Part shown: positions 1,991-61,900 of the stretch, one piece after another | How the letters are laid out: the number at the start of each line of letters is the position of its first letter | Numbering within the stretch: the first letter of the stretch is position 1 | Assembly: GCA_046483065.1 (NCBI GenBank) | Contig: JAWODW010000037.1 | Span: forward strand, 1,779-65,778 | From: Longimicrobiales bacterium | Lineage (GTDB): Bacteria > Gemmatimonadota > Gemmatimonadetes > Longimicrobiales > RSA9 | DNA length: 64,000 nt | Reading direction: 5' to 3' | Position numbers and translations under genes: made by a program | The notes under the pieces: model-generated | Databases searched by the model: none | The model's input: the letters and a program-made list of their open reading frames with translations, nothing else | Told to the model about the DNA's origin: nothing

Positions 1991-3541
1991 TCAGCCCCCG
2001 CCGCCGCCCGGCTCGGCCAGGATCTCGAGGAGGGCGTCGGCGGCGCGGTCATCGTTGGAGTTGCCGAGCCAGAAGATGGCCCGGGTCCGGAGCTGGCTGT
2101 CGGTCTCGGTGCGGGCGATCTCGATGAGCCGGTCGATGGCGCCGGGCTCTCCGCTCTCCGAAAGGCCGAAGATGATCCGCTCCTTCAGCTCGCGCTCCTC
2201 GACCTGGCCGTAGAGCCGGCCGAGCTCATCGGCGGCGATCCCGGCCTCGGCGGCCCAGAAGATGGCGCGGCTGCGCAGCTCGGTGTCCCGGCTCGCGTCG
2301 GTGGCCACGGAGAGGAGCCAGCGTGCGTCCTCGGGCCGCTCTGTCTGCCCGACGGCGAAGAGGATCCGTTCGGCGAGGCGAGGGTCGTCCACCTGCTCGA
2401 ACATCTCCTTCAGCGCCTCAATGTCCTCGGGGGTACCCTCCTCGGCGAGCCAGAAGACGGCGCGCTCCCGGATCCGACTCGGCGCGCTCGGGTCGCGGGC
2501 CACGTCGCGGACCACCTGGAGCGCCCGCGGGCTGCCGTGCTGGGACAGGGCGAAGATGGCGCGCTCCCGGATCCGGTCGTCGTCGGACTCGTGGACGAAG
2601 CGGGCGAGGGCGTCCACGGCCCGGTCGTCGTCGACCTCGCTGAGCCAGAAGACGGCCTGGCGGCGCACCTCGACGTCCGGGTCGTTGTTGGCCGCGTCCA
2701 GCAGGATGTCGACCGACTCCGGCGTCTGCTTGTCGGCGATGAGGAAGACCGCCCGCCGTCGCAGGACCACGCTGCACGGGTCGCGGCGCTGCATGACCTG
2801 CCGGAGCACCGGCATAGCCCGCTCGGTGTTCATGTGCATGAGCGCGTTCATCGCCGCGAGCTGGGTCTCGGCCTCCTCCCGGCACTCCTGGGGCAGCTCA
2901 TCGATGGAGGTCCGCCCCATGGCGCCGGCCATCACGCGGCCCTGCTCGGCGGCGATCATGGCCGCCCTGGCGATCTCATCGCTGTGGGCGGCGATCCCCT
3001 CGGTGGCCGCGGCCACCTGGGCGGCCACTTCCTCGCCGATGACGGCGCCCATTCGCGCCATCTCGTTCGACATCTCCACGATGGCCATGGCGGCGCTCTC
3101 GTTGCCGCGCCGGGCCAGGAGGCCGCGGATGCGAGTGGCGAGGGAACGGGCGTCGCCGTCCTGGCGGGTCGACGCCTGCGGATAGCGGTCGGCCTGCAGC
3201 TCCAGCAGCGCCAGCGCCTCCTCCAGCTCGTCCGAGTGGTCGAGGCGGTAGCGGTTGAAGGCCTCCCAGTAGACGGCGTCCGGCGCGTACGTGGACCGGG
3301 CGTGCTCGTCCCATACCTGGTGGAAGAGCCGGGCGGCCCGCTCGTGGTCACCGCGGCTCATGGCCGCCCGGGCCGCGCGGTAGAGCGAGTCGGCCGGGTC
3401 CTGCTGGTTCCACGCCGCCGGCGCCTCGGCCCGGGGGCCGGATGCAGGCGCCAGCCGGGCGAACGTCGGGTCGGCCTGGTCGGCCCGGGCCCCTGCGGGC
3501 ACCAGCAGCAGTGCGATCAATCCGATGATGGTCTTTCTCAT
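1991..3541 (-). CDS. Secreted HEAT-repeat protein
   Basis: Signal peptide MRKTIIGLIALLLVPAGARA. About ten repeats of the type D..VR.RAIFWL/FAL...D.RA...L, e.g. DPDVEVRRQAVFWLSEVDDDRAVDAL. Confidence 0.8.
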   Translation of the reverse strand: MRKTIIGLIALLLVPAGARADQADPTFARLAPASGPRAEAPAAWNQQDPADSLYRAARAAMSRGDHERAARLFHQVWDEHARSTYAPDAVYWEAFNRYRLDHSDELEEALALLELQADRYPQASTRQDGDARSLATRIRGLLARRGNESAAMAIVEMSNEMARMGAVIGEEVAAQVAAATEGIAAHSDEIARAAMIAAEQGRVMAGAMGRTSIDELPQECREEAETQLAAMNALMHMNTERAMPVLRQVMQRRDPCSVVLRRRAVFLIADKQTPESVDILLDAANNDPDVEVRRQAVFWLSEVDDDRAVDALARFVHESDDDRIRERAIFALSQHGSPRALQVVRDVARDPSAPSRIRERAVFWLAEEGTPEDIEALKEMFEQVDDPRLAERILFAVGQTERPEDARWLLSVATDASRDTELRSRAIFWAAEAGIAADELGRLYGQVEERELKERIIFGLSESGEPGAIDRLIEIARTETDSQLRTRAIFWLGNSNDDRAADALLEILAEPGGGGG

Positions 3542-3552
3542 GGTTCAGCTCC

Positions 3553-4176
3553 TTACAGCGAAATATCCGCAGGGGCTGCGGCCGTCCGCAGCTTCGTCAG
3601 CAGCTGCTGCTGCCGGATCCCCTCTTCGATCAGGTCGTCATCCCCGGCACCGCCCGAGTTCGCGATCTGCACGAGCACGAGCTCCAGGTCGCCCAGCAGG
3701 CCGGCCATCTCGGGGTCCTCCGCCACGCGGGAGTCGAGGAGCAGCCGCGTGGTGGCCAGAAGGTCCCTGGCCCAGTCGGCTGTGGCGGCCCGGTCATCCG
3801 TGGACGCCGCGGACGACCGGAAGAGCGTGAGCAGCGCCTCGGCGTCACTCATGTGCTCCGCCGCGGCCAGGCGCACCGGCGTGGACGGGGCCGACCTCTC
3901 GGCCGCCGCCATCGGCGCGTGTGCGGGGGCCGGCTCCCGGGTCATGCGACCCAGCCCGAAGCCGACGGCCAGCGTAGCGGCCGCCGCCAGCCCCACCACC
4001 CACGGCGTCCCCCGCCGCAGCCGGTGCCTGGCCCGGCGCCCGGCCAGGTCGTCGGTCTCGCGCCCCTGGGGCAGCTCCTCCCGGATCACCGCCCACATCT
4101 CGTCCCGGGGCGGCTCCGGCGGCTCGTTGTAGTCCCGTGCGGCGTGTATCATCCGCTCCAGCTCCTCCGGCTTCAT
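3553..4176 (-). CDS. Putative single-pass membrane anti-sigma factor
   Basis: 4-nt ATGA overlap with the sigma gene. Short N-terminal cytoplasmic segment, one TM helix (WVVGLAAAATLAVGFGLG) and a periplasmic tail. The call is by position; no specific family motif was recognised. Confidence 0.6.
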   Translation of the reverse strand: MKPEELERMIHAARDYNEPPEPPRDEMWAVIREELPQGRETDDLAGRRARHRLRRGTPWVVGLAAAATLAVGFGLGRMTREPAPAHAPMAAAERSAPSTPVRLAAAEHMSDAEALLTLFRSSAASTDDRAATADWARDLLATTRLLLDSRVAEDPEMAGLLGDLELVLVQIANSGGAGDDDLIEEGIRQQQLLTKLRTAAAPADISL

Positions 4177-4960: not shown

Positions 4961-5362
4961 ATGACAGAAGCAACGGTCAACTACGCCCTCGCCCGTACGC
5001 TGGACCTCTCCTTCGAGGAGGCCGACGAGCGCGTCCGGGCGGCGCTGAAGGACGAAGGGTTCGGCGTGCTCACGGAGATCGACGTGAAGGCCACGCTGAA
5101 GGAGAAGCTGGACGAGGAGTTCCAGCAGTACAAAATCCTGGGCGCGTGCAACCCGCCGCTGGCTCATCAGGCGCTGCAGCACGAGATCGACATCGGGCTG
5201 CTCCTGCCGTGCAACGTGGTGGTCCGGGCGCTCGACGACGGCCGTACCGTGGTGGAAGCCATGGACCCGGTCCAGCAGCTCGCGGTGGCCGACAACCCCG
5301 ACCTGCCCGCCATGGCGCAGCAGGTCCGGGAGCGGATGGAGCGCGTGATCGCCGCGCTGTAG
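4961..5362 (+). CDS. DUF302 domain protein
   Basis: GFGVLTEIDVKATLKEKL...YKILGACNPPLAHQAL signature. GGAGG lies 6 nt upstream of ATG 4961. The upstream part of ORF 4814.. lacks coding bias. Confidence 0.85.
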   Translation: MTEATVNYALARTLDLSFEEADERVRAALKDEGFGVLTEIDVKATLKEKLDEEFQQYKILGACNPPLAHQALQHEIDIGLLLPCNVVVRALDDGRTVVEAMDPVQQLAVADNPDLPAMAQQVRERMERVIAAL

Positions 5363-5396
5363 GACCGCCGCGCTGTAGGACCGCCGCGCTGTAGGA
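5349..5396. repeat. 16-bp tandem triplication (CCGCCGCGCTGTAGGA) spanning the DUF302 stop codon
   Basis: Three consecutive copies at 5349..5364, 5365..5380 and 5381..5396. The first copy encodes the last codons plus TAG. Confidence 0.95.
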
Positions 5397-5445
5397 CGCG
5401 GGGGTCGTGGCGGCGTTCCCACCTTCGGGACGTGGCCACCCCCGG

Positions 5446-5666
5446 ATTCACGCGAAGACGCGGCGGGGAACCGCGAGACGCGAAGCCGGCAAGGCGGCGT
5501 TCGCGGTGAACGAGAAAGTCACCGGGCGAGGCAGGGATCAGGATCCTGTCTCGCTCCGGTAGCTTCTCCCCCGGACGCTGCCGCGCCGGAAAGCTCGAGC
5601 CTCCACCGCGAGCCCCGCCCTACCCGGCTTGGCGTCTCCTGCAGGTCTTCGCGTCTTCGCGTGAAT
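5446..5666. repeat. Palindromic intergenic element of the CGCGAAG/CGCGGAG heptad family (17-bp perfect terminal inverted repeat)
   Basis: ATTCACGCGAAGACGCG (5446..5462) is the exact reverse complement of CGCGTCTTCGCGTGAAT (5650..5666). The right arm is near-identical to 41541..41575. Confidence 0.85.
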
Positions 5667-5719
5667 GCAGTTGAAGTTCCCGCGCATCGAGCCGTTCTCC
5701 GCGTCTCCCGAATAAAGAA

Positions 5720-7464: not shown

Positions 7465-8091
7465 ATGGCCGAACGGGGCACGGAGGAGCGGATCCTGGAC
7501 GCGGCGCACACGGTGTTCCTTCAGCGGGGCACGGCGGGGGCGCGGATGCAGGAAGTGGCGGACGAGGCGGGCGTGAACAAGGCGCTGCTGCACTACTACT
7601 TCCGGAGCAAGGACCAGCTGGCGCAGGCGGTGTTCCGGCGGGCGCTCGGTGAACTGCTGCCGCAGGCGATGGAGGTTCTGCGGTCGGGCGTGCCGGTGGA
7701 GGAGAAGGTTCGGCGGATCGTGGAGCTGGAGGTGGACACGCTGCGTCGGAACCCGTTCCTCCCGGGCTACCTGCTGGGGGAGTTGACGCATCACCCGGAA
7801 CGGGTCCATGAGATCTTCGAGTCGGTGGCGGGGATGCAGCTGGGGCAGCTGGGCGACGAGGTCCGATCGACGCTCCGGTCGCAACTCGAGGAGGCGGCCG
7901 AGGCGGGGCGACTGCGGGCGATCCCGCCCGAGGACTTCCTCATGAACCTGATCTCCATGGCGATCTTCCCGTTCGCGGCGCGCCCGCTCCTGCGTCTTAT
8001 GCTGGACCTGGACGACGAGGGCTTCGACGCGTTGATGGAGGCGCGCAAGGAGCGCGTGCCGGACTTCTTCCTGAAGGCACTGCGACCATGA
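7465..8091 (+). CDS. TetR/AcrR family transcriptional regulator
   Basis: N-terminal HTH ILDAAHTVFLQRGTAGARMQEVADEAGVNKALLHYYFRSKDQL. First gene of the efflux operon. Confidence 0.9.
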   Translation: MAERGTEERILDAAHTVFLQRGTAGARMQEVADEAGVNKALLHYYFRSKDQLAQAVFRRALGELLPQAMEVLRSGVPVEEKVRRIVELEVDTLRRNPFLPGYLLGELTHHPERVHEIFESVAGMQLGQLGDEVRSTLRSQLEEAAEAGRLRAIPPEDFLMNLISMAIFPFAARPLLRLMLDLDDEGFDALMEARKERVPDFFLKALRP

Positions 8092-28718: not shown

Positions 28719-30089
28719 ATGAAACCGTTCGCCGCCGCCGTCGCCGCTCTCCCGCCCCGTCGCGAGTTCCGCTCGCTCGTCCGCCTGGCGCTGCCCATCG
28801 TGGCGGTACAGGTGGGGCTGATGTTCATGGGCGTGGTAGACACACTCATGGTGGGCCGGGTCAGCGCCGCAGCGCTGGCGGCGGTGGCCCTCGGCAACCT
28901 GTACTTTTTCTTCATCGCCATCTTCGGGATGGGCGTGCTGTTCGGCCTCGACCCCGTCGTATCTCAGGCGGTGGGCGCCCGGGACGACGCGGCCATCGCC
29001 CGGGCCGTCCAGCGGGGGCTGGTCATGGCCGCCGTGCTGGCCGCCCTCTCCCTCGCGGCGCTGCTGCCGGCCGAGGCGATCTTCACCGTGCTCCGCCAGC
29101 CGCCGGACGTCATCCCCCTGGCCGCTGGCTACGTTCACGCGGCCACCCCGGGGATCGTGGCCTTCCTCGCCTTCATCGTGCTCCGGCAGACGCTCCAGGC
29201 CATGGACCGGGTCCGGCCCATCGTGGTGGCCATCGTGGCGGCGAACCTGGTGAACGTGCTCACGAACTGGCTCCTGGTCTTCGGCCACTGGGGCTTCCCC
29301 GCCCTCGGCCCCATCGGGACGGGGTGGGCCTCGACGTTCAGCCGGTGGACGATGCTCGTCTTCCTCGCGGTGCTCACGCTGCGACGCCTCGGCCCTTACC
29401 TCCGGCCCGCCGGCCGCGTGGTCCTCCAGCTCCGGCCGCTGTGGCGCATGCTCCGCCTCGGCGCGCCCATCGGCGCACAGTTCCAGCTCGAGATGGGCGC
29501 GTTCGCCGTGGTGGCGCTCCTCATGGGCTGGCTCGGCACCGCCCAGATGGCCGGCCACCAGGTGGCCATCAACCTGGCGTCGCTCACGTTCATGGTGCCC
29601 GTGGGCATCGCCCAGGCCGGCGCCATCCGCGTAGGGCAGGCCGTGGGGCGCGACGACCCCGCGGGCGCACGCATCGCTGTGAAGTCGGCCCTCGTGGCCG
29701 GCGCCGGGTTCATGTCCTTCACCGCCGTCGTGTTCCTGGCCTTTCCCGGGTTCCTGACCCACCTCTACACCGAGGAGCCCGAGGTGATGGCCGTGGCCGT
29801 GACGCTCATCCCCATCGCCGGCGTCTTCCAAGTGGCCGACGGGCTCCAGGTGGTCTCGGCCGGCGTGCTCCGCGGTATCGGCGACACCACCGCCCCCTTC
29901 GTGGCCAACCTCCTGGCCTTCTGGATGGTCGGGCTCCCCGTGGGCATCTACCTCGGCTTCCGCACCGCCGCCGGGCCGGTGGGACTCTGGTGGGGGCTCG
30001 TCGCCGGTCTCGGCCTCGTGGCCCTCTTCCTCGTGCTCCGGGTGCGCAATCGGATGCGGAGGACGCTGGCCCGGATCGTCATCGATTAG
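28719..30089 (+). CDS. MATE family efflux transporter
   Basis: Start MKPFAAAVAALPPRREFRSLVRLALPIVAVQVGLMFMGVVDTLMVGRVS. 12 TM helices with internal duplication (second half LRLGAPIGAQFQLEMGAF...). Confidence 0.9.
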   Translation: MKPFAAAVAALPPRREFRSLVRLALPIVAVQVGLMFMGVVDTLMVGRVSAAALAAVALGNLYFFFIAIFGMGVLFGLDPVVSQAVGARDDAAIARAVQRGLVMAAVLAALSLAALLPAEAIFTVLRQPPDVIPLAAGYVHAATPGIVAFLAFIVLRQTLQAMDRVRPIVVAIVAANLVNVLTNWLLVFGHWGFPALGPIGTGWASTFSRWTMLVFLAVLTLRRLGPYLRPAGRVVLQLRPLWRMLRLGAPIGAQFQLEMGAFAVVALLMGWLGTAQMAGHQVAINLASLTFMVPVGIAQAGAIRVGQAVGRDDPAGARIAVKSALVAGAGFMSFTAVVFLAFPGFLTHLYTEEPEVMAVAVTLIPIAGVFQVADGLQVVSAGVLRGIGDTTAPFVANLLAFWMVGLPVGIYLGFRTAAGPVGLWWGLVAGLGLVALFLVLRVRNRMRRTLARIVID

Positions 30090-30091
30090 TA

Positions 30092-30185
30092 GGCGTGGAG
30101 ACGCGGAGGAGCGCGGAGGCGCGGAGGGGGCGTCGCGAGGCGGGGATTCGGGTGGGGATCGAGGGACGCGACGAGGCCGACTTCA
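30092..30185. repeat. Single arm of a CGCGGAG heptad element
   Basis: GGAGACGCGGAGGAGCGCGGAGGCGCGGAGGGGG... starts 3 nt after the MATE stop and ends at the stop of the lipoprotein fragment. Confidence 0.7.
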
Positions 30186-30299
30186 GGGCTCGTAGAGGTC
30201 GAAGGGGGCGACGGTAGTTGTCCAGCCGGACGACGGCGCGTCGCCACCGCACGAGACGGCCGCGAGCACCACGAAGCCGGCGACGAGTCGGTTGGTCAA
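30183..30299 (-). pseudogene. Lipoprotein N-terminal fragment (38 codons: signal peptide + lipobox, then premature stop at the repeat junction)
   Basis: Not in the ORF track (<60 aa). TTG ACC AAC CGA ... gives (M)TNRLVAGFVVLAAVSCGGDAPSSGWTTTVAPFDLYEP*. GC3 is very high. The stop at 30183 directly abuts the CGCGGAG repeat arm 30092..30185. Confidence 0.5.
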
Positions 30300-30315
30300 T
30301 GCAGAAACGTCGACC

Positions 30316-30526
30316 CCCAAGGCGGACCGCCCAAGGCGGACCGGGTTTTACTTACCCGCCCAAGGCGGACCGCCCGCCCAAGGCGGACCGGGTTTTACTA
30401 TTTACCGCCGGGCCCTGCATGGCCTCATTCGCTGCCGATCTGCCCCGAATTCGGGCCGTTGGGATAGCAAATCGGGACATCCAGATAGCTGAAATGGCCA
30501 AATTGTAAAAAGTAAAACCAGGTCCG
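30316..30526. mobile_element. MITE-like element: duplicated left end and inverted right end around an AT-richer core
   Basis: CCCAAGGCGGACCG occurs four times in two ~43-bp tandem units, each ending CGGACCGGGTTTTACT (30336..30351 and 30385..30400). The inverted partner AGTAAAACCAGGTCCG is at 30511..30526. The core has a 12-bp palindrome CCCGAATTCGGG (30444..30455). No transposase is present. Confidence 0.45.
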
Positions 30527-30570
30527 TTAGGAGGCCAAGTTAGACGGCCGGCCTCAAACGGAATCCTTGA

Positions 30571-31140
30571 TCCGACGCCGGCGGCGAAGTGTGGCTGTCG
30601 GCGTTCGGCGGCGGTGAGGCGGAAGCCATGGAGGCGGTGATCGTGACGTCGGGCGGTCGCTACCTGGTGGTGGGCGGTACCGAGGGCGGGGAGGGCGACG
30701 ACGCGTGGGTGGTGGCGGTGGAGCCCGACGGCAGCATCGCCTGGCAGAAGACGTACGGGATCGCCGGCGTGTACGACGAGGCGCTGAGCGTCGGGATGAC
30801 CGACCACGGCGGTGCCCTCATCGGCGGGTCGTACTACGAGGACGGCGACGCGGACTGGAGCTGGACGCTGGCCCGCGTCGGGCCCGACGGCGCGCTGAGC
30901 TGGAACCGGAGCTACGAGCGAAGCTTCGACTGGCCGAACTCCGTGGTCGAGCTGTCCGACGACAGCGCGGGCGCGTCGTGCGCGCCCAGCGCCGACCAGA
31001 CCATCGCGGAGGAAGTCACGACGGTCTCACCGGTGGCCAGCAGCGCCACGGTGACCGACGCGGCCATCACGCCTCAGACCACCAGCGCGTCCGTCACGGA
31101 CACCGGCGAGGGGCACGCGTACGACTGCTCGGACGGTTAG
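30571..31140 (+). pseudogene. 5'-truncated fragment of a beta-propeller-type repeat protein
   Basis: The frame is open from 30571 and the track starts it at GTG 30589. No signal peptide or N-terminus. Repeats DDAWVVAVEPDGSIAWQKTYG / DWSWTLARVGPDGALSWNRSY are typical of secreted repeat proteins. The upstream region is AT-richer repeat DNA. Confidence 0.5.
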
Positions 31141-31187
31141 AAGAGCACTTCCGCGAAGTCGAGGTCCTCATCGCACAGGTCACCGCG

Positions 31188-31715
31188 TCACTGGCCATCG
31201 CCCACGGGCCGCGACGCGGGCACATCGATGGCGCTGAACCCGTCGGCGTGGATCCGCCACTCCCCCCGCGAGTTCCGCTTCCAGATCACGATGAACTTCC
31301 CGCGGCTGCCCTCGGCCTCCGGCGACGCGTCGGGCGCCCGGAGGGTGTAGACCCCTACGTCGTAGGCCATGCCACCGCTGATCTCACGGTCCACGATCTC
31401 GAAGGCGATCTCGGGACCGGCGCCGCCGTCCCGGGTATAGCGCTCGAGGAAGGAGAATTGCCCGCGGAACTGGTCCTGCCCGTGGAGGATCGGCGAGCCC
31501 GGCGGTAGGTAGTACGCGTCGCGGGCGTAGACCCCGTCCATGAGGAGCGTGATGTTGGCCTGGGCGTACGCCTCGCTGAACGTGGCATAGACGCTGTCCA
31601 GCGCGGCATTCACGGCCCCCCGCTGTGCCGCGGCCTCGGGGTCCGGTACGGTGCACGCCGTGACGAACAAGCACAGGAGGGCGGCCAGGGTGGCGGACAG
31701 GGCGTCGTGGTGCAT
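31188..31715 (-). CDS. SnoaL-like/DUF4440-type (NTF2 fold) lipoprotein
   Basis: Lipobox LCLFVTAC. ...GKFIVIWKRNSRGEWRIHADGF C-terminal motif is typical of DUF4440. Confidence 0.7.
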   Translation of the reverse strand: MHHDALSATLAALLCLFVTACTVPDPEAAAQRGAVNAALDSVYATFSEAYAQANITLLMDGVYARDAYYLPPGSPILHGQDQFRGQFSFLERYTRDGGAGPEIAFEIVDREISGGMAYDVGVYTLRAPDASPEAEGSRGKFIVIWKRNSRGEWRIHADGFSAIDVPASRPVGDGQ

Positions 31716-31790
31716 GGAGCTCTTGGTGCGGGTCGATCTCGCGATCGTTGCGTCGGCCGGCCCCGTCGGGCCGTACGCCCCCGGGACCGC

Positions 31791-31919
31791 CTATTCGTCG
31801 GCCAGCGCCGTGTGCGGGTCGATCCGCGTGGCCTGGCGGACTGGAAGATAGCTGACCAAGGCCGCCACCGTAACCAGCGCGCCGGCGGCCAGCGCCACCT
31901 CCGCCACGTTGATCGCCCG
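31791..31919 (-). pseudogene. 3'-terminal remnant (42 codons) of an FtsX/MacB-type ABC permease gene
   Basis: Not in the ORF track. The minus frame reads RAINVAEVALAAGALVTVAALVSYLPVRQATRIDPHTALADE*, i.e. the last TM helix plus the canonical ..P.R.A.RIDP..AL..E tail. An in-frame TAG lies immediately upstream (31920..31922). Confidence 0.6.
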
Positions 31920-31949
31920 CTACCCGCCGCCCCGCCGCGGGGGCGGGCT

Positions 31950-32120
31950 GTCCCAAATGCGCCGTTGGCGTGGGCCGGGAGGACCACCTGCGGCTTTGGG
32001 GCCCTACGCGACCCATATCCCGCATTGGCCGTTGGCAGGGAGGAACGAAAGGAGGATTCGGGTCTCTACGCGACCGATTCTCCGCATTGACTGGATTCAA
32101 GGCTGCGGGCGGAGCATTTC
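31950..32120. repeat. Three degenerate ~58-bp tandem repeats downstream of the AAA ATPase gene
   Basis: Units share ..CTACGCGACC..(A/T)TC(C/T)CCGCATTG(G/A)C..GG..GGGAGGA.. (compare 32003..32040 with 32066..32100, and 31953..31990). Confidence 0.6.
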
Positions 32121-32179
32121 GGCGCCCTGGGCACGGACCTGTCTTATCCGGGCGCGGCGACGTCCGTTGCTCGCGCCCC

Positions 32180-33316
32180 CTACACCACCAGCTCCCGCTT
32201 CGCCCACTCCCGGAAGTACGGGTTGTCGAACCGGACCCCAGCGCCGGTACGGCCCAGGATGGACCGACGCACCAGCGCCTCCAGGCCGGTGGCCACCGAC
32301 GATGCGGCACCGAGACCGTACAGCTCCCGGGTGTCGGTGGAGTGGAGCTGCTCGGCCCCGGCGGCCACCGCCCGGAGGATCCGCTGCTGGAGCGGCGTCA
32401 GATCGTCGAACGTGCGGCGGAGCGCCGGGTCGTCCTGCGTCACGATCTCCCCGATGGCACCCTCCACCGATCCGGGACCCGCCACGCCCTCCTGCGCACA
32501 GCGGAACCAGAGCACCCGGGCCGCCTGCACGATGTCCTGGGTGCGCGGGCCGACCCGCTCCACCAGCTCCCGGCCCACGCCCGCGGCCTCCACGCCGGCA
32601 CCCGTCAGCCGGCTGTCGATCCAGTGGGCCAGGTGGTCCGCGTCGATGGGGCCGAGATCCAGGCGGTCGAAGAACTTGTAGAACGCACGCTTCGGCTGCA
32701 GCATCTCGGCGATCAGGCTCCCCTTCGAGCCCGCGCACACATAGCCGGTCGTTCGGTTCTCCTGCATCCGTCGACGCAGCAGCCACTCCGCCGCCTCGCC
32801 GCCCAGCTCCGCGATCCGCTGGAACTCGTCCAGCACCACCACCACAGGCGACGACGACTCCGACGCCACCTCCTCAACCCGGTCCAGGACCCCCTCCAGC
32901 AGCTCCCGCTCCCCCTCCTCGCCACGAGGACGCGACTCCAACGCCACCGACAGCCGGGGCAGACCCGACAAGTCGTAGCCCAGCGTGACCACCGGAGCCA
33001 GACCCCGCGCCCACTCCGACAGTCGGTCCCGCCACAGCTCTACCGCCGCCACCGCACGCAGGAGCCGGTTCGACACCTCCGTCAGCGACGACGCCGTGGC
33101 CAGATCCGCCTGCAGCACTGTGCCACCCGCCACCTCCACACGCTCCGCAGCCACGCCGATAACGGTGCTCTTCCCCATCCGCCGCGGGCCCGTCACAAGG
33201 AGCCGCGCCCGGTCGGCTATGGCCCGCCGCACCACGGCCACCTCGTCGGCCCGATCGGTGAAATAGGCGTCGCGGACGTGCTCGGCGACCCGGAAAGGAT
33301 TCCTCAGCTCGCGCAT
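32180..33316 (-). CDS. AAA+ ATPase of the archaeal-ATPase (PF01637-like) type with C-terminal winged-helix-like region
   Basis: Walker A GPRRMGKST, Walker B VVVVLDEFQ. FTDRADEVAVVRRAI N-terminal motif. The C-terminus LTPLQQRILRAVAAG is wHTH-like. Confidence 0.75.
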   Translation of the reverse strand: MRELRNPFRVAEHVRDAYFTDRADEVAVVRRAIADRARLLVTGPRRMGKSTVIGVAAERVEVAGGTVLQADLATASSLTEVSNRLLRAVAAVELWRDRLSEWARGLAPVVTLGYDLSGLPRLSVALESRPRGEEGERELLEGVLDRVEEVASESSSPVVVVLDEFQRIAELGGEAAEWLLRRRMQENRTTGYVCAGSKGSLIAEMLQPKRAFYKFFDRLDLGPIDADHLAHWIDSRLTGAGVEAAGVGRELVERVGPRTQDIVQAARVLWFRCAQEGVAGPGSVEGAIGEIVTQDDPALRRTFDDLTPLQQRILRAVAAGAEQLHSTDTRELYGLGAASSVATGLEALVRRSILGRTGAGVRFDNPYFREWAKRELVV

Positions 33317-33338
33317 GGCTCTCTGACGTTCGGGGTTC

Positions 33339-33367
33339 TACGTTACGTTACATTACGTTACGTTAGT
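33339..33367. repeat. Pentanucleotide microsatellite (TTACG)n in a divergent promoter region
   Basis: TACG TTACG TTACA TTACG TTACG TTAG is six near-perfect 5-bp units. It is AT-rich relative to its surroundings, and lies between ATPase start 33316 and hydrolase start 33477. Confidence 0.9.
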
Positions 33368-33476
33368 CTACATAACCTAGCGCCTCTGTCAAGGACCCGG
33401 CCGGGTGTCCTACCTTGTGACGGTCCGCCACCCGATACATCTTGCGACCGTGCTCCCCAACCCTGGAGGCGAAGCC

Positions 33477-34361
33477 ATGCGTTGTATCCCGATCCATGCC
33501 ACGCGCGGCGCCCCCGCCTGCGCGGTCGTCCTTTCGCTCGTCCTCACCTTCCTCTTGGCCGGTCCGTCGGCGGCGCAGGAGACGGGCGAGACGCATCACG
33601 ACGGGCTCCCGCCGGGCGCCGAGGGCGCGGTGGAGGCGCTGAACGCGTCGCCGCGCCACGGTGAGTGGGCGATGGTCCGTCTGGAGAACGGCGACAGCGT
33701 GCGGAGCTGGGTGGTCTACCCGGAGCGTAGTGACGCGGCGCCGGTGGTGGTGGTGATCCACGAGATCTACGGGCTGACGAACTGGGTGCGTGCCGTGGCC
33801 GACCAGACGGCGGCGACCGGTTTCATCGCCATCGCGCCGGACCTGCTGACCATGGAGGGCGTGCCCACCGACGCGGCCGGCGACCCGGAGCAGCAGCCGG
33901 CGGTGGCGGCCATCCGCGGGCTGGACGACGACCGGGTACATCGCCAGATCCGGGCGGTGGCGGAGTACGCCATGGGTCTGGCCGCGGCCCGGCCGGTGTA
34001 CGGGATCACGGGGTTCTGCTGGGGCGGCAGCACCAGCTTCGAGCACGCCACCCGCTACGAAGACATCATGGGCGCCGTCCCCTTCTACGGCGGCTCGCCC
34101 TCGGAGGCGGCGCTGGGCCGTGTGCGGGTCCCGGTCCTGGGCCACTACGGCGGGGATGACGCCCGTGTGAACGCCACGATCCCCCGGGCGGAGGCCGTGC
34201 TGGGCGGCGACTACTGGCCGAACATCTACGATGACGCCGGCCACGGCTTCCTGCGGCAGCAGAGCGGCCGTGACGGGGCCAACCACCGGGCGTCGGTCCA
34301 GGCGTGGCCGATGACGGTCGGGTTCTTCCGGGCGGCCGCGTACTACGCGGGTGGGAACTGA
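33477..34361 (+). CDS. Dienelactone hydrolase family protein (secreted)
   Basis: Signal peptide ...LTFLLAGPSAAQE. VVVVIHEIYGLTNWVRAVAD...GFCWGG...GHGF motifs. GGAGG upstream of ATG 33477. Confidence 0.85.
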   Translation: MRCIPIHATRGAPACAVVLSLVLTFLLAGPSAAQETGETHHDGLPPGAEGAVEALNASPRHGEWAMVRLENGDSVRSWVVYPERSDAAPVVVVIHEIYGLTNWVRAVADQTAATGFIAIAPDLLTMEGVPTDAAGDPEQQPAVAAIRGLDDDRVHRQIRAVAEYAMGLAAARPVYGITGFCWGGSTSFEHATRYEDIMGAVPFYGGSPSEAALGRVRVPVLGHYGGDDARVNATIPRAEAVLGGDYWPNIYDDAGHGFLRQQSGRDGANHRASVQAWPMTVGFFRAAAYYAGGN

Positions 34362-41278: not shown

Positions 41279-41293
41279 ACCGTCAAGCTTTCG

Positions 41294-41582
41294 ACGCGAA
41301 GACACGAAGTCAAATGCGCGAAGGCGCGGAGAACGGCAGCAGGGCACGCGAAGGCGCGGAGATCGCGAAGGGGTGCGTCGTGGGCCGAAACCTGTTCTCA
41401 GATCCCGACGACCGGTTCCGGGTGGAGACGGTGGGCTCGACGTTCGCTGCGAAGCCCGACCCGCCCGGACAACCCCATGTCACGAAGTCTGCTCCGCCCG
41501 GATGGTCCGACCCCACCGGCGAGCCCGCCCTTCGCGATCTTCGCGTCTTCGCGTGGGATGCAGTGCTTCGCGTCTTCGCGCG
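41294..41582. repeat. Palindromic CGCGAAG/CGCGGAG heptad element
   Basis: The left arm CGCGAAGGCGCGGAGATCGCGAAGG is the reverse complement (21/25) of the right arm CCTTCGCGATCTTCGCGTCTTCGCG. The right arm nearly duplicates 5641..5670. Confidence 0.85.
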
Positions 41583-41594
41583 AACCCGAGGGTG

Positions 41595-55759: not shown

Positions 55760-55787
55760 GGGGCATCGAGGGGGAGAGGCCCGGCTA

Positions 55788-56008
55788 GGCGCGGAGGCGC
55801 GGAGTACTCGCGGAGAACCGATCGGGAGTTGATCCGGTGAAGCTGGATCCGCCGCAGAGGGTGCACCTTCGCGGCGTGCCAGGTTTCCGAGAATCGAGTC
55901 CTGTCCAGCCCGGAGCTCATCGTCTTCCGCCGCGAACCCCGGCCTCGCCCGGATCAACGCTACTGCAGTTCTCCGCGTTCGCTCCGCGACTCCGCGGCTC
56001 CGCGGTTC
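55788..56008. repeat. Palindromic CGCGGAG heptad element, copy A (upstream flank of the serine-hydrolase gene)
   Basis: Left arm GGCGCGGAGGCGCGGAGTACTCGCGGAGAACC, right arm GTTCTCCGCGTTCGCTCCGCGACTCCGCGGC. Shares blocks CGCGGAGAAC, GATCCGGTG, CGTCTTCCGCCGCGAA, CCTCGCCCGGATCAA and TCCGCGGCTCC with copy B. Confidence 0.85.
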
Positions 56009-56096
56009 CCGACACCTCAGCCTTGCCGAAGCGCCGTCCATGCCGTACCGGTGAACGTGCGACCCGTGAGCCCGCCCACACACCAGGAGACCCCCC

Positions 56097-57896: not shown

Positions 57897-57917
57897 TACG
57901 GGCACACGGTCAACCGC

Positions 57918-58140
57918 AGAGACGCGGAGACGCGAAGTACACGCGGAGAACTGCTGCGGGGGTCGATCCGGTGGATTCCGAGCTCGCGGCGGTGGATTCA
58001 AGATTCGCGACGAGGCAGGGCTCCGGGCGTCGGAGTCCGGGATCCGCCAGAGACCCGGCGTCTTCCGCCGCGAAGGGCGCCTCGCCCGGATCAAACCCAA
58101 AACCCTCCCGTACGCTCCGCGCTTCCGCGGCTCCACGGTT
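57918..58140. repeat. Palindromic CGCGGAG heptad element, copy B (downstream flank of the serine-hydrolase gene)
   Basis: Same orientation and the same conserved blocks as copy A. Starts ~20 nt after the stop at 57896. Confidence 0.85.
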
Positions 58141-58270
58141 AACGATGCGCCGTTCCGCGCCGCTCCCGGCCCGTGCGGCAGAATCATCCAATTCCCCACA
58201 GACGGCGGCGGCGGTGGCCCGGATTTTGACAGGTGTTGAACCAACTCACGAATGGAACGGGAAACCGATC

Positions 58271-58720
58271 ATGGCCGAAGCAGAGAAGGAATTCGATCTG
58301 ATGCTCCGCCGGCTCGAGGGCTTCAAGTTCGACACGGAGTTCGACGGCGAGAAGATGGCGAACCTGATGTTCGACGAGCCGGACCCCATCGGCGACGACG
58401 AGGGTCCGAACGCCGCCCGGGTGCTGAGCGCCGCCGTGGGCAACTGCCTGAGCGCGAGCCTGCTCTTCTGCCTGCAGAAGGCGCGGGTCACGGTGGAAGA
58501 CATGACCACCGACGTCCACGGCGTCGTCACCCGGAACGAGGACAAGCGGCTCCGGGTCACGGCGATCAAGGTCCGCATCAACGCCACCATCCCGCCCGAG
58601 GACCAGGACCGGGTCCCCCGCTGCCTCAAGGTCTTCGAGGATTTCTGCGTGGTGAGCGGCAGCGTCCGGAAAGGCATCGACATCGATGTCGAGGTGGACG
58701 TGCTGAACCCATCAAGCTGA
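58271..58720 (+). CDS. OsmC-like family protein
   Basis: Start MAEAEKEFDLM at ATG 58271. AAVGNCLSASLLFCL and FEDFCVVSGSV Cys motifs. Confidence 0.75.
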   Translation: MAEAEKEFDLMLRRLEGFKFDTEFDGEKMANLMFDEPDPIGDDEGPNAARVLSAAVGNCLSASLLFCLQKARVTVEDMTTDVHGVVTRNEDKRLRVTAIKVRINATIPPEDQDRVPRCLKVFEDFCVVSGSVRKGIDIDVEVDVLNPSS

Positions 58721-58721
58721 C

Positions 58722-58790
58722 GCGGAGGCGCGGAAGGGCGCGGAGACGCAGAGGTCTGACCGGTGGCATTCGTGCCCCGGCGAGGCTTTC
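58722..58790. repeat. Single arm of a CGCGGAG heptad element
   Basis: GACGCGGAGGCGCGGAAGGGCGCGGAGACGCAGAGG lies between the OsmC-like stop (58720) and the stop of the ppa remnant (58792). Confidence 0.7.
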
Positions 58791-58791
58791 T

Positions 58792-58905
58792 TCACCCGGC
58801 GGTGTCCACCTCGTACTTGTTCCGCCCGCCCCGGGGGATCTCGATGTACGCGTTCAGGCGGTCGGGTGGGTTGGGGCCGGTGGGCAGGTCGTGAAGCGGA
58901 TGCAT
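58792..58905 (-). pseudogene. ppa: Inorganic pyrophosphatase, N-terminal 37-codon remnant
   Basis: MHPLHDLPTGPNPPDRLNAYIEIPRGGRNKYEVDTAG* matches the family-I PPase N-terminus (..H.IP.G...P...N..IEIP.GS.NKYE.D). It then stops ~140 codons early, next to the CGCGGAG repeat arm 58722..58790. Confidence 0.7.
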
Positions 58906-59125
58906 GGCAGGCGACGCGGGGTGAGGGGAACGGTCGTCGTGACTTCCGATCTCAACGTGCCACGGCCGGGGGCGGCGCGGCAAGCTCCGGGGTGGGGCCA
59001 ACCATTCGCGCGGGTCCGACCTTCCGAGCGAAGCGGCGGTCGCGGCTCGGGAAGGCTGCCGGGCACAGCTGGTCGCGGGTCACGAGAGACCGGCGGCGGC
59101 TCGTCGGGCGGGGCCATCGGCTAGC

Positions 59126-59307
59126 GCGGGGGAAAATCGCGATTTCGTCGCCTGTTCGGGGGCGACATCGCGATCTTCCACGTCAAAGGTGGAAAAATGC
59201 GCTGGGGCGCCACGGGCCCGGCGACCAGGTTGCGTTCTTCCACCGATCAGGGTGGAAAAACGGGATGCGGCGAGCGGGATGCCCGCGAGATTGCGTATTT
59301 TCCCCGC
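59126..59307. repeat. Composite palindromic non-coding element with two TTCCAC-N-GTGGAA sites
   Basis: Outer [20 protein letters not shown] (59126..59143) / ATTGCGTATTTTCCCCGC (59290..59307). Hairpin at 59137..59173. Sites TTCCAC-N7-GTGGAAAAA (59176..59197) and TTCCACC-N6-GGTGGAAAAA (59238..59260). Confidence 0.75.
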
Positions 59308-59360
59308 CTTCGGCACCACGACCTCCCGACCCGGAGGTCCTCACGCGGCTAGAACCACCT

Positions 59361-59531
59361 TCACGTCCCCTCCATGTGCGTCCGGTAGGCGCCTCCGTAC
59401 CGCTCGAGGAGGAGCCGCTCCTCGCGCGGTGTCCGGTAGTCTAGCACGCCGAGCAGCACGAGTCCGACGGCCAGGAGGAAGGCGCTGTCGGCGAGGACCG
59501 CCACGAAAGTACCCCGATACCACAAATCCAT
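59361..59531 (-). CDS. 56-aa membrane mini-protein resembling the C-terminus of ICMT/PEMT-type methyltransferases (possibly a gene remnant)
   Basis: Below the ORF-track cutoff. GGAGGTGAAGG precedes ATG 59531. High GC3. MDLWYRGTFVAVLADSAFLLAVGLVLLGVLDYRTPREERLLLERYGGAYRTHMEGT* (TM helix + EE..L...YG..Y..Y tail). Confidence 0.5.
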   Translation of the reverse strand: MDLWYRGTFVAVLADSAFLLAVGLVLLGVLDYRTPREERLLLERYGGAYRTHMEGT

Positions 59532-59540
59532 CCTTCACCT

Positions 59541-59665
59541 CCTTGCGAGCCCCCGCAGGGGGCGAGCCTGTTGCGGCCGACGGCCGCCTGTTGCGAACGA
59601 AGTGAGCCTGTTGCCGGCCGCAGGCCGGCCTGTTGCGAGGACCGGAGGGCCGAGCCTGTTGCGAG
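59541..59665. repeat. Array of five GAGCCTGTTGCGAG-type repeats (20-26 bp period) interleaved with short GC hairpins, between feoB and the 56-aa ORF
   Basis: CCTGTTGC starts at 59567, 59587, 59607, 59629 and 59655. The spacers are mini-hairpins (CCCCCGCAGGGGG, GGCCGACGGCC, CCGGCCGCAGGCCGG, TCGCCGTCAGGCGA). A terminal half-copy CCTTGCGAG merges into the SD of the small ORF. Confidence 0.9.
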
Positions 59666-59671
59666 TCGCCG

Positions 59672-61900
59672 TCAGGCGACGAGCCTCCACGCCTGCGCCA
59701 CCCCGAACGTCACCGCGAAACCCAGCGCCAGCGGCAGCAGCGCCGCCACCACCGTCCACTTCCCGCTCCCGGTCTCCTTGTAGATGGTGTACAGCGTGGT
59801 GGAGCACGGGTTGTGGAGCAGGCTGAAGAGCATGAGGCTCACGCCGGTAAGAAGGGTCCAGCCGCCGGTGCGGAGAACGTCGGCCATGGCCATGGTGCTG
59901 TCCAGCTCGAACATGACGCCCGCCCCCTCCCCCAGGCCGCCCAGGCTCGCGGTGGTCAGCACGGTGAGCATCAGCACGGTGGGGATCACGATCTCGTTGG
60001 CGGGGATGGCCACCACGTAGGCCAGCAGGATCACGCCGTTCATGCCGAGCAGGAGGCCGAAGGGGTCCAGGGCCGAGATCGCGTGCTCGGCCAGGCTCGC
60101 GTCGGCCACACTGATGTTGGCCAGCAGCCAGATGACGGCGCCGGCGGGCACGGCGAAGATCACGGCGCGCCAGAGCACGATGAGCGTCCGGTCGATGACC
60201 GACGTGTAGAGGGTCTGGAGGATCCGCGGCGGGCGGTACGGCGGCAGCTCGAGGCTGAACGTCGTCGCCTCGCCCCGGAGCACGGTGTTGGAGAGGAGCC
60301 ACGAGCTCAGGAACATGAACCCGACACCGAGCACGGCGATCCCGACCACTGCGGCGGCGGAGACCAGGCCCGCCAGGTGGGCGGGGGCCAGGGCGCCGAT
60401 GAAGATGGTGGCGATGAGGATCTGCGTGGGCCAGCGGCCGTTGCAGAGACTGAAGTTGTTCGTCAGGATCGCGATCAGCCGCTCGCGCGGGCTGTCGATC
60501 ACGCGGGTCGAGACCACGCCGGCGGCGTTGCAGCCGAAGCCCATGGCCATGGTCAGCGCCTGCTTCCCGTGGGCGCCCACCTTCTTGAACATCCCGTCCA
60601 TGTTGAACGCCACGCGGGGCAGGTAGCCGAAGTCCTCGAGGAGCGTGAAGAGCGGGAAGAAGATGGCCATGGGCGGCAGCATGACGGCCACCACCCACGC
60701 CGTGGCCAGGTAGACGCCATCGAAGAGGAACCCGCTCAGCCACCACGGCATGCTGAGCGCCTCACCGACGCCCGTGAGCCACGCGTGCCCGTTGTCCACC
60801 AGCAGCGTGCCGAGCATCTGCGAGGGCACGTTGGACCCGGCGATGGTGATCCAGAAGACCACGGCCAGCATCAACAGCATCAGGGGGAACCCGAGCCACC
60901 GGCTGGTGAGGAGGTCGTCGAGCTTCCGGTCGAAGTCGTACGCCGTCTGCTTCAGGCCCCGGCGCTGCGACCGGTCGGCAATCGCCTGGGCGGCCTGGAA
61001 GAGGCGCGCCATGAGGGCATCGTGGAAGTCCGGGCGGAGGTTCCACCGCAGCCGCGACGCCGTGTCCAGCACCTCCCGGATCGCCGCCTCGTCCCCGGCG
61101 GGCTCTCCGGCGTGATCCTCCCCATGGGCCAGGAGCCCGAGCTCACCGCTGCGCACCGCCTCCTCCACAGCGCCATCGGCGTTCAGCAGCCGGAGGGCCA
61201 CCCACCGAGCGTTGGCCACGCCGGGGTACGCCCGCTGGATGGCCGGGACCAACTCGGCAGCGGCCTGCTCCACCTCCAGTGCGTGGGACTCGAGGCGGTA
61301 CGGCGTGGTGGGCCGCGCGCCGGTGGCCACGGCCTCCACCGCGTCCAGCAGCGCCCCGATACCCTCGCCGGACCGGGCCACGGTGGGGACCACGGGAACG
61401 CCGAGCTCGGCCTCCAGCTTCTCCGGATCCACCGCCGCACCCCGGCGCTCTGCCTCGTCCATCAGGTTCAGGCAGACCACCACACGGTCCGTGATCTCCA
61501 TGACCTGGAGGACCAGGTTCAGGTTCCGCTCCAGGTGCGTGGCGTCGACTACCACTACCGTGACATCGGGGCGGCCGAACACGATAAAGTCGCGGGCCAC
61601 TTCCTCGTCGCTGCTCCCGGCCTGGAGCGAGTACGTCCCCGGCAGGTCCACCACCTTCACCCGCCGGCTGTTGTGGGCGAACACACCCTCGGCACGGACC
61701 ACCGTCTTCCCCGGCCAGTTGCCGGTGTGCTGACGGAGCCCCGTCAGCTCGTTGAAGACGGTGCTCTTCCCCACGTTCGGGTTCCCGGCCAGCGCCACCA
61801 GGTGGTCCCACTTGTCGGGACTCAGACCGAGCCGCACCAGGTTCTGGTGCCGATGCTGCGCCGTCGCGCCCTCCTTCCGGGGCCGCGTGATCGTCACCAT
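59672..61900 (-). CDS. feoB: Ferrous iron transporter B
   Basis: G-domain [28 protein letters not shown]. Long polytopic C-terminal permease domain. Confidence 0.95.

Follow-up and report, generated by a model that had tools for sequence, protein, structure and literature searches.

The window analysed here, 64,000 nucleotides (nt) of a contig from a metagenome-assembled genome (MAG) of an uncultured Longimicrobiales bacterium (Gemmatimonadota), has a G+C content of ~70% and contains the remains of a family I inorganic pyrophosphatase gene (ppa) next to a single arm of a palindromic repeat element. The minus-strand open reading frame (ORF) of 37 codons at positions 58795-58905 is, to judge by its sequence, a genuine pseudogene stump of ppa and not a member enzyme. 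The loss of the gene was probably a case of ordinary deletional decay beside a palindromic repeat, in which a single illegitimate deletion took one arm of the element together with most of ppa.

The pyrophosphatase stump

The ORF translates to MHPLHDLPTGPNPPDRLNAYIEIPRGGRNKYEVDTAG and is closed by a TGA stop codon at 58792-58794. A phmmer search of the PDB aligned query positions 1-35 with residues 18-52 of 1ude_A (best E = 1.1e-8), and the peptide covers residues 1-35 of solved family I inorganic pyrophosphatases. The conserved N-terminal segment of the PF00719 family (..IEIP.G..NKYE.D..) is present. The Pfam match spans positions 2-17 of 153; its score of 14.3 bits misses the cut-off solely on account of the shortness of the piece. 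Codons 1-34 (58804-58905) share 88-91% amino acid identity with the intact ppa of related genomes, and DNA identity to the orthologues is 86-88% over 58803-58907, where homology is unambiguous. An earlier note on this DNA counted 37 canonical ppa codons up to the break; the remnant is indeed one of ppa, but its last three codons (T-A-G) have no counterpart in the orthologues and only 34 are demonstrably derived from that gene. The complete PF00719 domain is defined by a metal-binding cluster of aspartates (DxDxxD) and a C-terminal Tyr/Lys site; with 34 homologous codons remaining, the stump has neither the catalytic DxDxxD region nor the complete domain of ~170-180 residues. No other segment of ppa was recovered from the 64-kb window by tblastn with E. 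coli Ppa and full-length orthologues as queries.

Compared with intact orthologues, 7-10 codons of the stump differ synonymously and 3-7 non-synonymously, the latter number being 3-4 for the three closest orthologues, and the G+C content of the stump at third codon positions (GC3) is 0.92. As the differences are mostly synonymous, most of the divergence would predate the loss of ppa, which suggests that the loss was fairly recent. ppa is usually a housekeeping gene; here it would have been dispensable, with another pyrophosphatase presumably present. A motif scan of the 64-kb window, the rest of the genome being outside its scope, yielded no H+-pyrophosphatase signatures.

The solo arm beside OsmC

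The former ppa gene faced an intact gene of the OsmC family (58271-58720, plus strand; Pfam PF02566, E = 8e-15), the product of which is 100% identical to the NCBI entry 'MAG: OsmC family protein [Longimicrobiales bacterium]'. The solo left arm of the palindromic element, S1 (58720-58755, plus strand), starts right at the OsmC stop codon and comprises four units with the core CGCGGAG, reading CGCGGAG G CGCGGAAGG GCGCGGAG ACGCAGAG. The period determined by Tandem Repeats Finder (TRF) is 8, not 7; the term 'heptad', under which the repeat had been introduced, therefore names the conserved 7-nt core and not the period. The arm had also been drawn as 58722..58790, ending 2 nt from the stump. It is considerably shorter, and ~39 nt of other sequence follow it before the stump. 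That only one arm is present was borne out both here and at a second solo arm (30091-30127, described below), and no CTCCGCG partner arm was found downstream of S1.

Using a profile of the four full copies in the window, nhmmer placed 58718-58792 on profile positions 12-94 of 237 (E = 0.064), most of the score coming from the arm. The 39 nt at 58756-58794 are of uncertain origin and contain the putative deletion junction as well as the TGA codon.

Orthologous loci in related genomes

Orthologous loci of this interval were collected via OsmC; the 167 loci fetched in all are labelled L001-L167. OsmC orthologues of 80-89% identity were found in L001-L007 and L162-L167. The ancestral order is OsmC -> <- ppa <- ICMT <- feoB <- feoA, which is preserved most fully in L165, where Fpg precedes OsmC. 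Synteny in the window is kept on both sides of the junction, with OsmC to the left and the 5' end of ppa, the 3' end of ICMT and feoB to the right. The missing 3' part of ppa, which the earlier note had proposed to seek in relatives, is found there: at least eight related contigs (L004, L005, L007 and L162-L166) carry a full-length gene at the corresponding site. No repeat unit occurs inside the eight intact orthologues examined.

L164, L165, L166/L167, L004, L005 and L007 have an intact ppa convergent with OsmC and a spacer free of any element. The spacer measures 58 nt in L164 (OsmC 89% identical), 6 nt in L165 and 59 nt in L166/L167, while the two genes overlap by 4 nt in L004; L005 and L007 carry a small extra gene between OsmC and ppa. 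This extra gene (L005 1845-2330, L007 464-940 (-)) has a lipoprotein-like start (MPRIPISLSVVVLLVLAGAC..).

The relative L162 shares with the window the neighbourhood of OsmC and a beta-lactamase-family gene, as well as the element copy termed E2. It possesses a complete element at 2804-3025 (nhmmer E = 4.5e-67) between the stop codons of OsmC (2747) and ppa (~3053), in the orientation of the arm in the window. This element makes up about 220 of the 305 nt (about 70%) of the OsmC-ppa spacer, and ppa is intact from ~3053 up to the end of the contig, at residue 53. The spacer of L163 likewise contains a complete element, of a type with CGCGACG units, next to an intact ppa. In L006 a solo arm of the CGCGACG type (3674-3710; 1/200 shuffles as good) is followed only by ppa residues ~105-154. 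What remains of the element in L001 is its left part, in degenerate form (nhmmer E = 5e-4; 0/200 shuffles reached the score). ppa is absent there, and likewise from L002 and L003, taken from other assemblies than L001. The different remains in L006 and L001 indicate that ppa has been lost independently in other lineages. These loci represent a natural series, comprising no element with an intact gene, a full element with an intact gene, half an element with a stump, and a degenerate element with no gene; the series shows the joint decay of a short palindromic repeat and its neighbouring gene in an uncultured phylum.

The palindromic repeat family

A total of seven clusters of at least three units were found in the window, against 0.03 per shuffle. 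Full copies in the window are ~230-300 bp in length, and their ends are inverted arms of three or four CGCGGAG-type units with a period of 8. All four lie on the plus strand. E1 (55781-56012), upstream of the beta-lactamase-family gene, and E2 (57908-58152; nhmmer E = 6e-62), between that gene and OsmC, have CGCGGAG arms. E0 (5448-5712), of the CGCGAAG subfamily, and E3 (41290-41585), of a subfamily with both CGCGAAG and CGCGGAG units, have CGCGAAG-rich arms. Both arms of an element change together between subfamilies. The complete copies fold as long hairpins of ~225 nt (z = -4.6, for E1, and -5.5), with 0/200 shuffles as stable. No known RNA family was detected in the window at the Rfam gathering thresholds, and the elements are not a described structured RNA. 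Across the 167 loci compared, the CGCGGAG type is essentially limited to the closest relatives, L001 and L162, and L163 and L006 have the sister type built on CGCGACG units.

Copies of the family coincide with indels and synteny breaks between relatives. E2 has a counterpart at the same position in L162 (1936-2172). At the E1 site, conservation in L162 (40-300) and L001 (5300-5500) extends to the right arm and some of the interior only; in place of the left part, L162 has GTACAACCCTCC/GGAGGGTTGTAC hairpin repeats and L001 other sequence. The genes upstream of this site differ in the window, L001 and L162, and the break in synteny falls inside the element. The flanks of E1, E2 and the spacer copy of L162 (L162c) exhibit no obvious direct repeat, and no alignable empty site was available, as the L164 spacer does not align with that of L162.

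Operationally, structure and copy pattern place the family among MITE-like (miniature inverted-repeat transposable element) or REPIN-like non-coding palindromic elements. The elements are small, lack an ORF, have terminal inverted repeats and occur in several copies, with more copies in L162 and L001; the conserved inverted ends form a hairpin, and singlets are found at 58720-58755, at 30091-30127, and in L001 and L006. The family is apparently undescribed. With REPINs and singlets of the repetitive extragenic palindromic (REP) sequence it has in common that it is non-coding, extragenic and multi-copy, with conserved inverted ends, a spacer that is conserved less well, and a long hairpin (Bertels & Rainey 2011, PMC3116915). 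REP singlets are regarded as what is left of hairpin doublets once decay, insertion or deletion has made them defunct (PMC3116915), and single arms occur here as well. The present element differs from REPINs in being about twice as long (~225-260 bp) and in having arms of tandem units with an 8-nt period (CGCGGAG, CGCGAAG, CGCGACG) instead of a single REP of ~20-25 nt. No RAYT (REP-associated tyrosine transposase) gene was seen, no search aimed at one having been made. Bacterial MITEs, including Correia/NEMIS, ERIC and Nezha, are small repeats that correlate with rearrangement and variable regions (PMC3184786). The element resembles them in its small size, terminal inverted repeats, lack of coding capacity and intergenic position, often between convergent genes, and in a presence or absence that varies between close relatives and is tied to variable regions (PMC3184786); it differs in that its terminal repeats consist of short tandem units, which is uncommon among MITEs, and in that no target-site duplication could be identified.

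A number of other repeats were observed near these elements or at equivalent positions. Differing short tandem arrays occupy equivalent intergenic positions in the relatives: (CACGATC)n at 3118-3180 in L005, (CAGCCGC)n at 3925-3958 in L006, (AAGAGGGC)n at 1-40 in L164, and CGTCGCG-type arrays at 3340-3450 in L163. Quick turnover of tandem arrays of 7-8 nt seems typical of the clade. At the E2 site, L001 has two direct repeats of ~60 nt (7480-7620; ..ACAATAAGGGTCGCTACGCGTCCATTATGTGACATCCG..) that belong to a different repeat family. A perfect tandem repeat of three 16-nt copies (CGCCGCGCTGTAGGAC) at 5350-5397 ends ~50 nt before E0, and every copy includes the stop codon of the ORF upstream.

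Mechanism of ppa loss

The following account of the locus is proposed as probable. The ancestor would have carried a palindromic non-coding element of ~225 bp in a short OsmC-ppa spacer, as L162 does now. One deletion, roughly 0.6 kb in size if the ancestor resembled L162 (from the lengths in L162 and of ppa), would then have taken the ppa-side half of the element, the remaining spacer and about 140 codons of ppa (~35-175). The OsmC-side arm and the first 34 codons would have stayed behind, with about 39 nt of junction sequence between them. As the lost arm adjoins the lost 3' part of ppa, one deletion explains both, and the simplest account is a single event. The retained part of ppa is that farthest from OsmC, and the arm in the window has the OsmC-side position and orientation of the element in L162. 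Since the two end points share no repeat, the event would have been illegitimate, through replication slippage or end-joining, and not a homologous recombination between copies. On the one-deletion account the solo arm is debris of a once complete element, as has been proposed for REP singlets. A separate deletion would have cost the adjacent ICMT gene its first ~145 codons.

Several observations weigh against this account. The element in L162 begins 51 nt past the OsmC stop codon, whereas the arm in the window lies right at it, and the two need not derive from one insertion. When the arms were excluded from the test, the similarity of the junction stretch to element interiors was weak and not significant, so that it is the arm which identifies the remnant as half an element. 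An anchored extension of the ppa homology into codons 35-47 was not significant either, and the junction can be bracketed to 58756-58803 at best. Exact-sequence look-ups of five proteins (OsmC, the beta-lactamase-family protein, FeoB, and the products of the 37-aa and 69-aa stump ORFs) found no second assembly of the junction. A word-based homologue search with the 69-aa ORF likewise gave no match. Two successive events would also look like one deletion, and a single event is preferred as the parsimonious reading. Some apparent regularities were dropped in the course of the analysis. A CTTCA end shared by both solo arms, a 5-nt microhomology with ppa codons 42-43, and deletions of 6 nt and 1 nt in the stump were set aside, the interiors not being significantly element-like without the arms and the anchored ppa extension not being significant. 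A supposed tendency of the elements to break at the centre was dropped as well; the profile end points are scattered.

The earlier note had explained the loss by recombination between repeat copies. The part of this that holds is that the deletion, by comparison with L162, took the arm and the rest of ppa. Homologous recombination would involve one copy next to ppa and a second within the gene or past it. In its favour, the family is multi-copy, with four full copies and two solo ones in the 64 kb; E1, E2 and S1 are only ~0.6-3 kb apart around the locus; and solo arms are found at indel or synteny boundaries at four sites. Such an event is nevertheless very unlikely. Recombination between direct copies leaves one complete hybrid element, whereas a lone arm with no CTCCGCG arm after it is found here; recombination between inverted copies inverts the intervening DNA and does not delete it; the eight intact ppa orthologues are without any repeat unit; and ~39 nt of non-arm sequence separate the arm from the ppa homology. 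As a whole element would be expected and ppa contains no repeat, the mechanism does not fit. An assembly artefact, in which the contig is chimeric or collapsed at the repeat and the real ppa is complete, is very unlikely as well. The source is a MAG, and the junction was recovered from one assembly only. However, the neighbours on either side are those expected, as are their order and orientation, and a mis-join would have had to pass over ~0.6 kb of unique sequence in a single locus, by way of an arm that is only ~36 nt long and differs between copies. Independent assemblies show comparable states (L001, L002 and L003, three assemblies without ppa, and L006 with another ppa fragment), and the ICMT stump has a premature stop codon of its own, as is expected of real decay. 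Unrelated events, with ppa deleted independently of the element and the arm representing a later abortive or partial insertion, or a local 8-nt tandem array, in the freed space, are unlikely too. The interior beside the arm is not significantly element-like, and the many different short tandem arrays at equivalent positions in relatives (L005, L006, L164) indicate that such arrays arise readily; against this, the units of the arm are those of the element family of this genome, in the orientation of the full copy in the L162 spacer, L001 still matches the interior of the element significantly at this position, and two events are needed where one suffices.

A refinement of the single illegitimate deletion, which we regard as possible and no more than tentative, is that the element promoted it. 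The palindrome would extrude as a hairpin or cruciform that stalls replication or is cut by an SbcCD-like nuclease, and repair would delete one half with its flank. Palindrome-stimulated deletion proceeds through hairpin cleavage by SbcCD or through slipped mispairing. The locus resembles such deletions in having a long imperfect palindrome at one end point and in the asymmetric loss of one half with its flank; it differs in that neither direct repeats nor microhomology could be demonstrated at the junction, and in that the end points are not clearly central. Full copies do fold as ~225-nt hairpins with the z-scores given above, and the OsmC-side part of the element survives in all three losses. 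ppa is lost or truncated in 3/5 element-bearing spacers (the window, L006 and L001, as opposed to L162 and L163) and in 0/7 element-free ones (L004, L005, L007, L164, L165 and L166/L167); the one-sided Fisher probability is ~0.045, uncorrected, and since the genomes are related the counts are not independent. Further half copies are situated at synteny breaks upstream of the beta-lactamase-family gene (L001, L162) and at the boundary of the MatE gene described below. On the other hand, the element occupies ~70% of the L162 spacer, and most random deletions that left OsmC untouched would terminate within the element. The inner end points, at about 88, 94, 115 and 154 of 237, are poorly defined and not convincingly central. 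That the element caused the deletions is possible, the evidence being suggestive and the case unproven. The wider proposal that these octad-armed elements are deletion hot spots, having removed half an element and ppa in three independent lineages with an implied reliance on another pyrophosphatase, is somewhat more doubtful still.

To describe the truncations as direct evidence that the repeat family reshapes the genome, as had been done, is an overstatement, since an element filling most of the spacer would probably be hit by chance. The locus is like other pseudogenes of deletional decay in that a short in-frame 5' or 3' piece, of a gene found whole in relatives, lies at a syntenic position between intact neighbours and in that different pieces remain in different lineages (the window, L006 and L001). 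It is unlike the usual remnants in that the gene lost is ppa, usually a housekeeping gene, implying a substitute enzyme. As this Longimicrobiales clade has lost soluble pyrophosphatase more than once, pyrophosphate must presumably be removed there by some other enzyme. Current understanding is not overturned by these results, as repeats are well known as markers, and possibly promoters, of rearrangement. For annotation, short ORFs beside solo arms in these genomes are best treated as pseudogene debris.

The ICMT remnant and the interval to feoB

The 950 nt between OsmC and feoB are, on the comparison with relatives, the apparent wreck of two genes. The second, ~450 nt from the ppa stump, is represented by the C-terminal ~51 residues of an ICMT/PEMT methyltransferase (59352-59504, minus strand), within an ORF of 56 codons (59361-59531) and with a premature stop codon. 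In L165 the ICMT gene (201 residues; Pfam ICMT and PEMT, PF04140/PF04191) sits between ppa and feoB. Using its product as the query, tblastn aligned residues 146-196 with 59352-59504 at 76% identity (E = 1e-10), through the premature stop, and at the DNA level the stump is 79% identical to L165 3620-3760. The sole match of the ORF 59361-59531 in the PDB was 4a2n, an ICMT (E = 0.053), and the GC3 of the stump is 0.86. The N-terminal ~145 codons are gone, the break at ~59505 abutting a repeat array of a different kind. In L163 a DUF1440 gene is found where L165 has ICMT, and the gene content of this short interval varies among close relatives.

The array (59541-59670) lies directly downstream of the feoB stop codon and is made up of units of ~20-26 nt, each GCCTGTTGCG plus a short G+C hairpin such as GGCCGCAGGCC (TRF rows 59566-59637 and 59604-59665); it is conserved in L001 (8384-8590). 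The intact anchor on the far side is feoB itself (59672-61900, minus strand; Pfam FeoB_N, E = 3e-61), with orthologues of 81-92% identity in L001, L005, L006 and L163. Between the two stumps lies the former ppa-ICMT intergenic region (58906-59351), for which no match was found in any fetched locus. At 59170-59260 this spacer contains two similar TTCCACC..GGTGGAA hairpins (CTTCCAC..N6-7..GGTGGAAAAA), ~65 nt apart, with no match in the fetched loci or in Rfam.

The second solo arm and the lipoprotein-like ORF

The second solo left arm, S2 (30091-30127, plus strand; TRF period 8, 4.4 copies), begins 2 nt after the stop codon of a MatE gene. No partner arm was found, the similarity of the adjoining sequence to the element interior was not significant, and nothing to the right of 30186 was element-like above shuffles. 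The last observation led to rejection of lenient alignments in which the whole locus was a degenerate element containing the ORF described next.

Beside the arm lies a minus-strand ORF of 38 codons (30186-30299, stop codon 30183-30185) with a TTG start, R4, a hydrophobic core and AAVS|C; the earlier note had the facts of this sequence right, from the signal peptide and lipobox to the stop at 30183. The lipobox pattern (PROSITE PS51257) comprises a positive N-region, an uncharged hydrophobic core and [LVI..][AST..][GAS]-Cys within the first ~35 residues. The ORF, with (M/L)TNRLVAGFVVLAAVS|C, conforms to this and was the sole match in the six frames of the window to a lipobox filter, one that was written post hoc. 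Its composition is coding-like (GC3 of 0.89, against 0.58 at second codon positions). No homologue was detected among 5.8 billion clustered proteins by a word-based search, nor in Pfam, and HMMER against 1.84 billion representatives gave only two unrelated proteins (P0121 and P0122), which were rejected as homologues since they are tandem-repeat proteins with summed weak matches. The description of the ORF as the fragment of a truncated gene could not be verified: no longer homologue was found, and in L126, the relative in which its 3' part might have been sought, the entire 3.5-kb region is missing. The ORF could represent a stump, or else an orphan or an intact mini-lipoprotein.

The start of S2 is the exact end of homology to L126, the only close syntenic relative (MatE 80%), the last ~13 codons of MatE differing between the two. 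At this site L126 has 0.6 kb with a zinc-ribbon gene; in the window, different sequence extends for 3.5 kb, as far as 33572. L126, in which MatE, zinc-ribbon and dienelactone-hydrolase-like genes are present, lacks this segment (30086-33572). The segment encodes a DUF4440 lipoprotein (31188-31715), an AAA/STAND-like ATPase (32180-33316), a 183-residue ORF for which Pfam gave no match, and a 38-residue ORF (31791-31907) that has no Pfam match either and may resemble the C-terminus of an FtsX/MacB permease.

Two further groups of repeats were observed in the window. Dense inverted repeats forming nested palindromes (CCCCAAACA..TGTTTGGGG, GGGGATTCCC..) occur at 871-1000 and have no relation to the CGCGGAG family. 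At 30312-30400 and 30505-30535, beside the lipoprotein-like ORF, CCAAGGCGGACCG units are twice extended to ..GGGTTTTACT, with an inverted partner, AGTAAAACCAGGTCCG, ~110 nt off; this repeat encloses an unusually A+T-rich stretch and resembles the ends of a different small inverted-repeat element.

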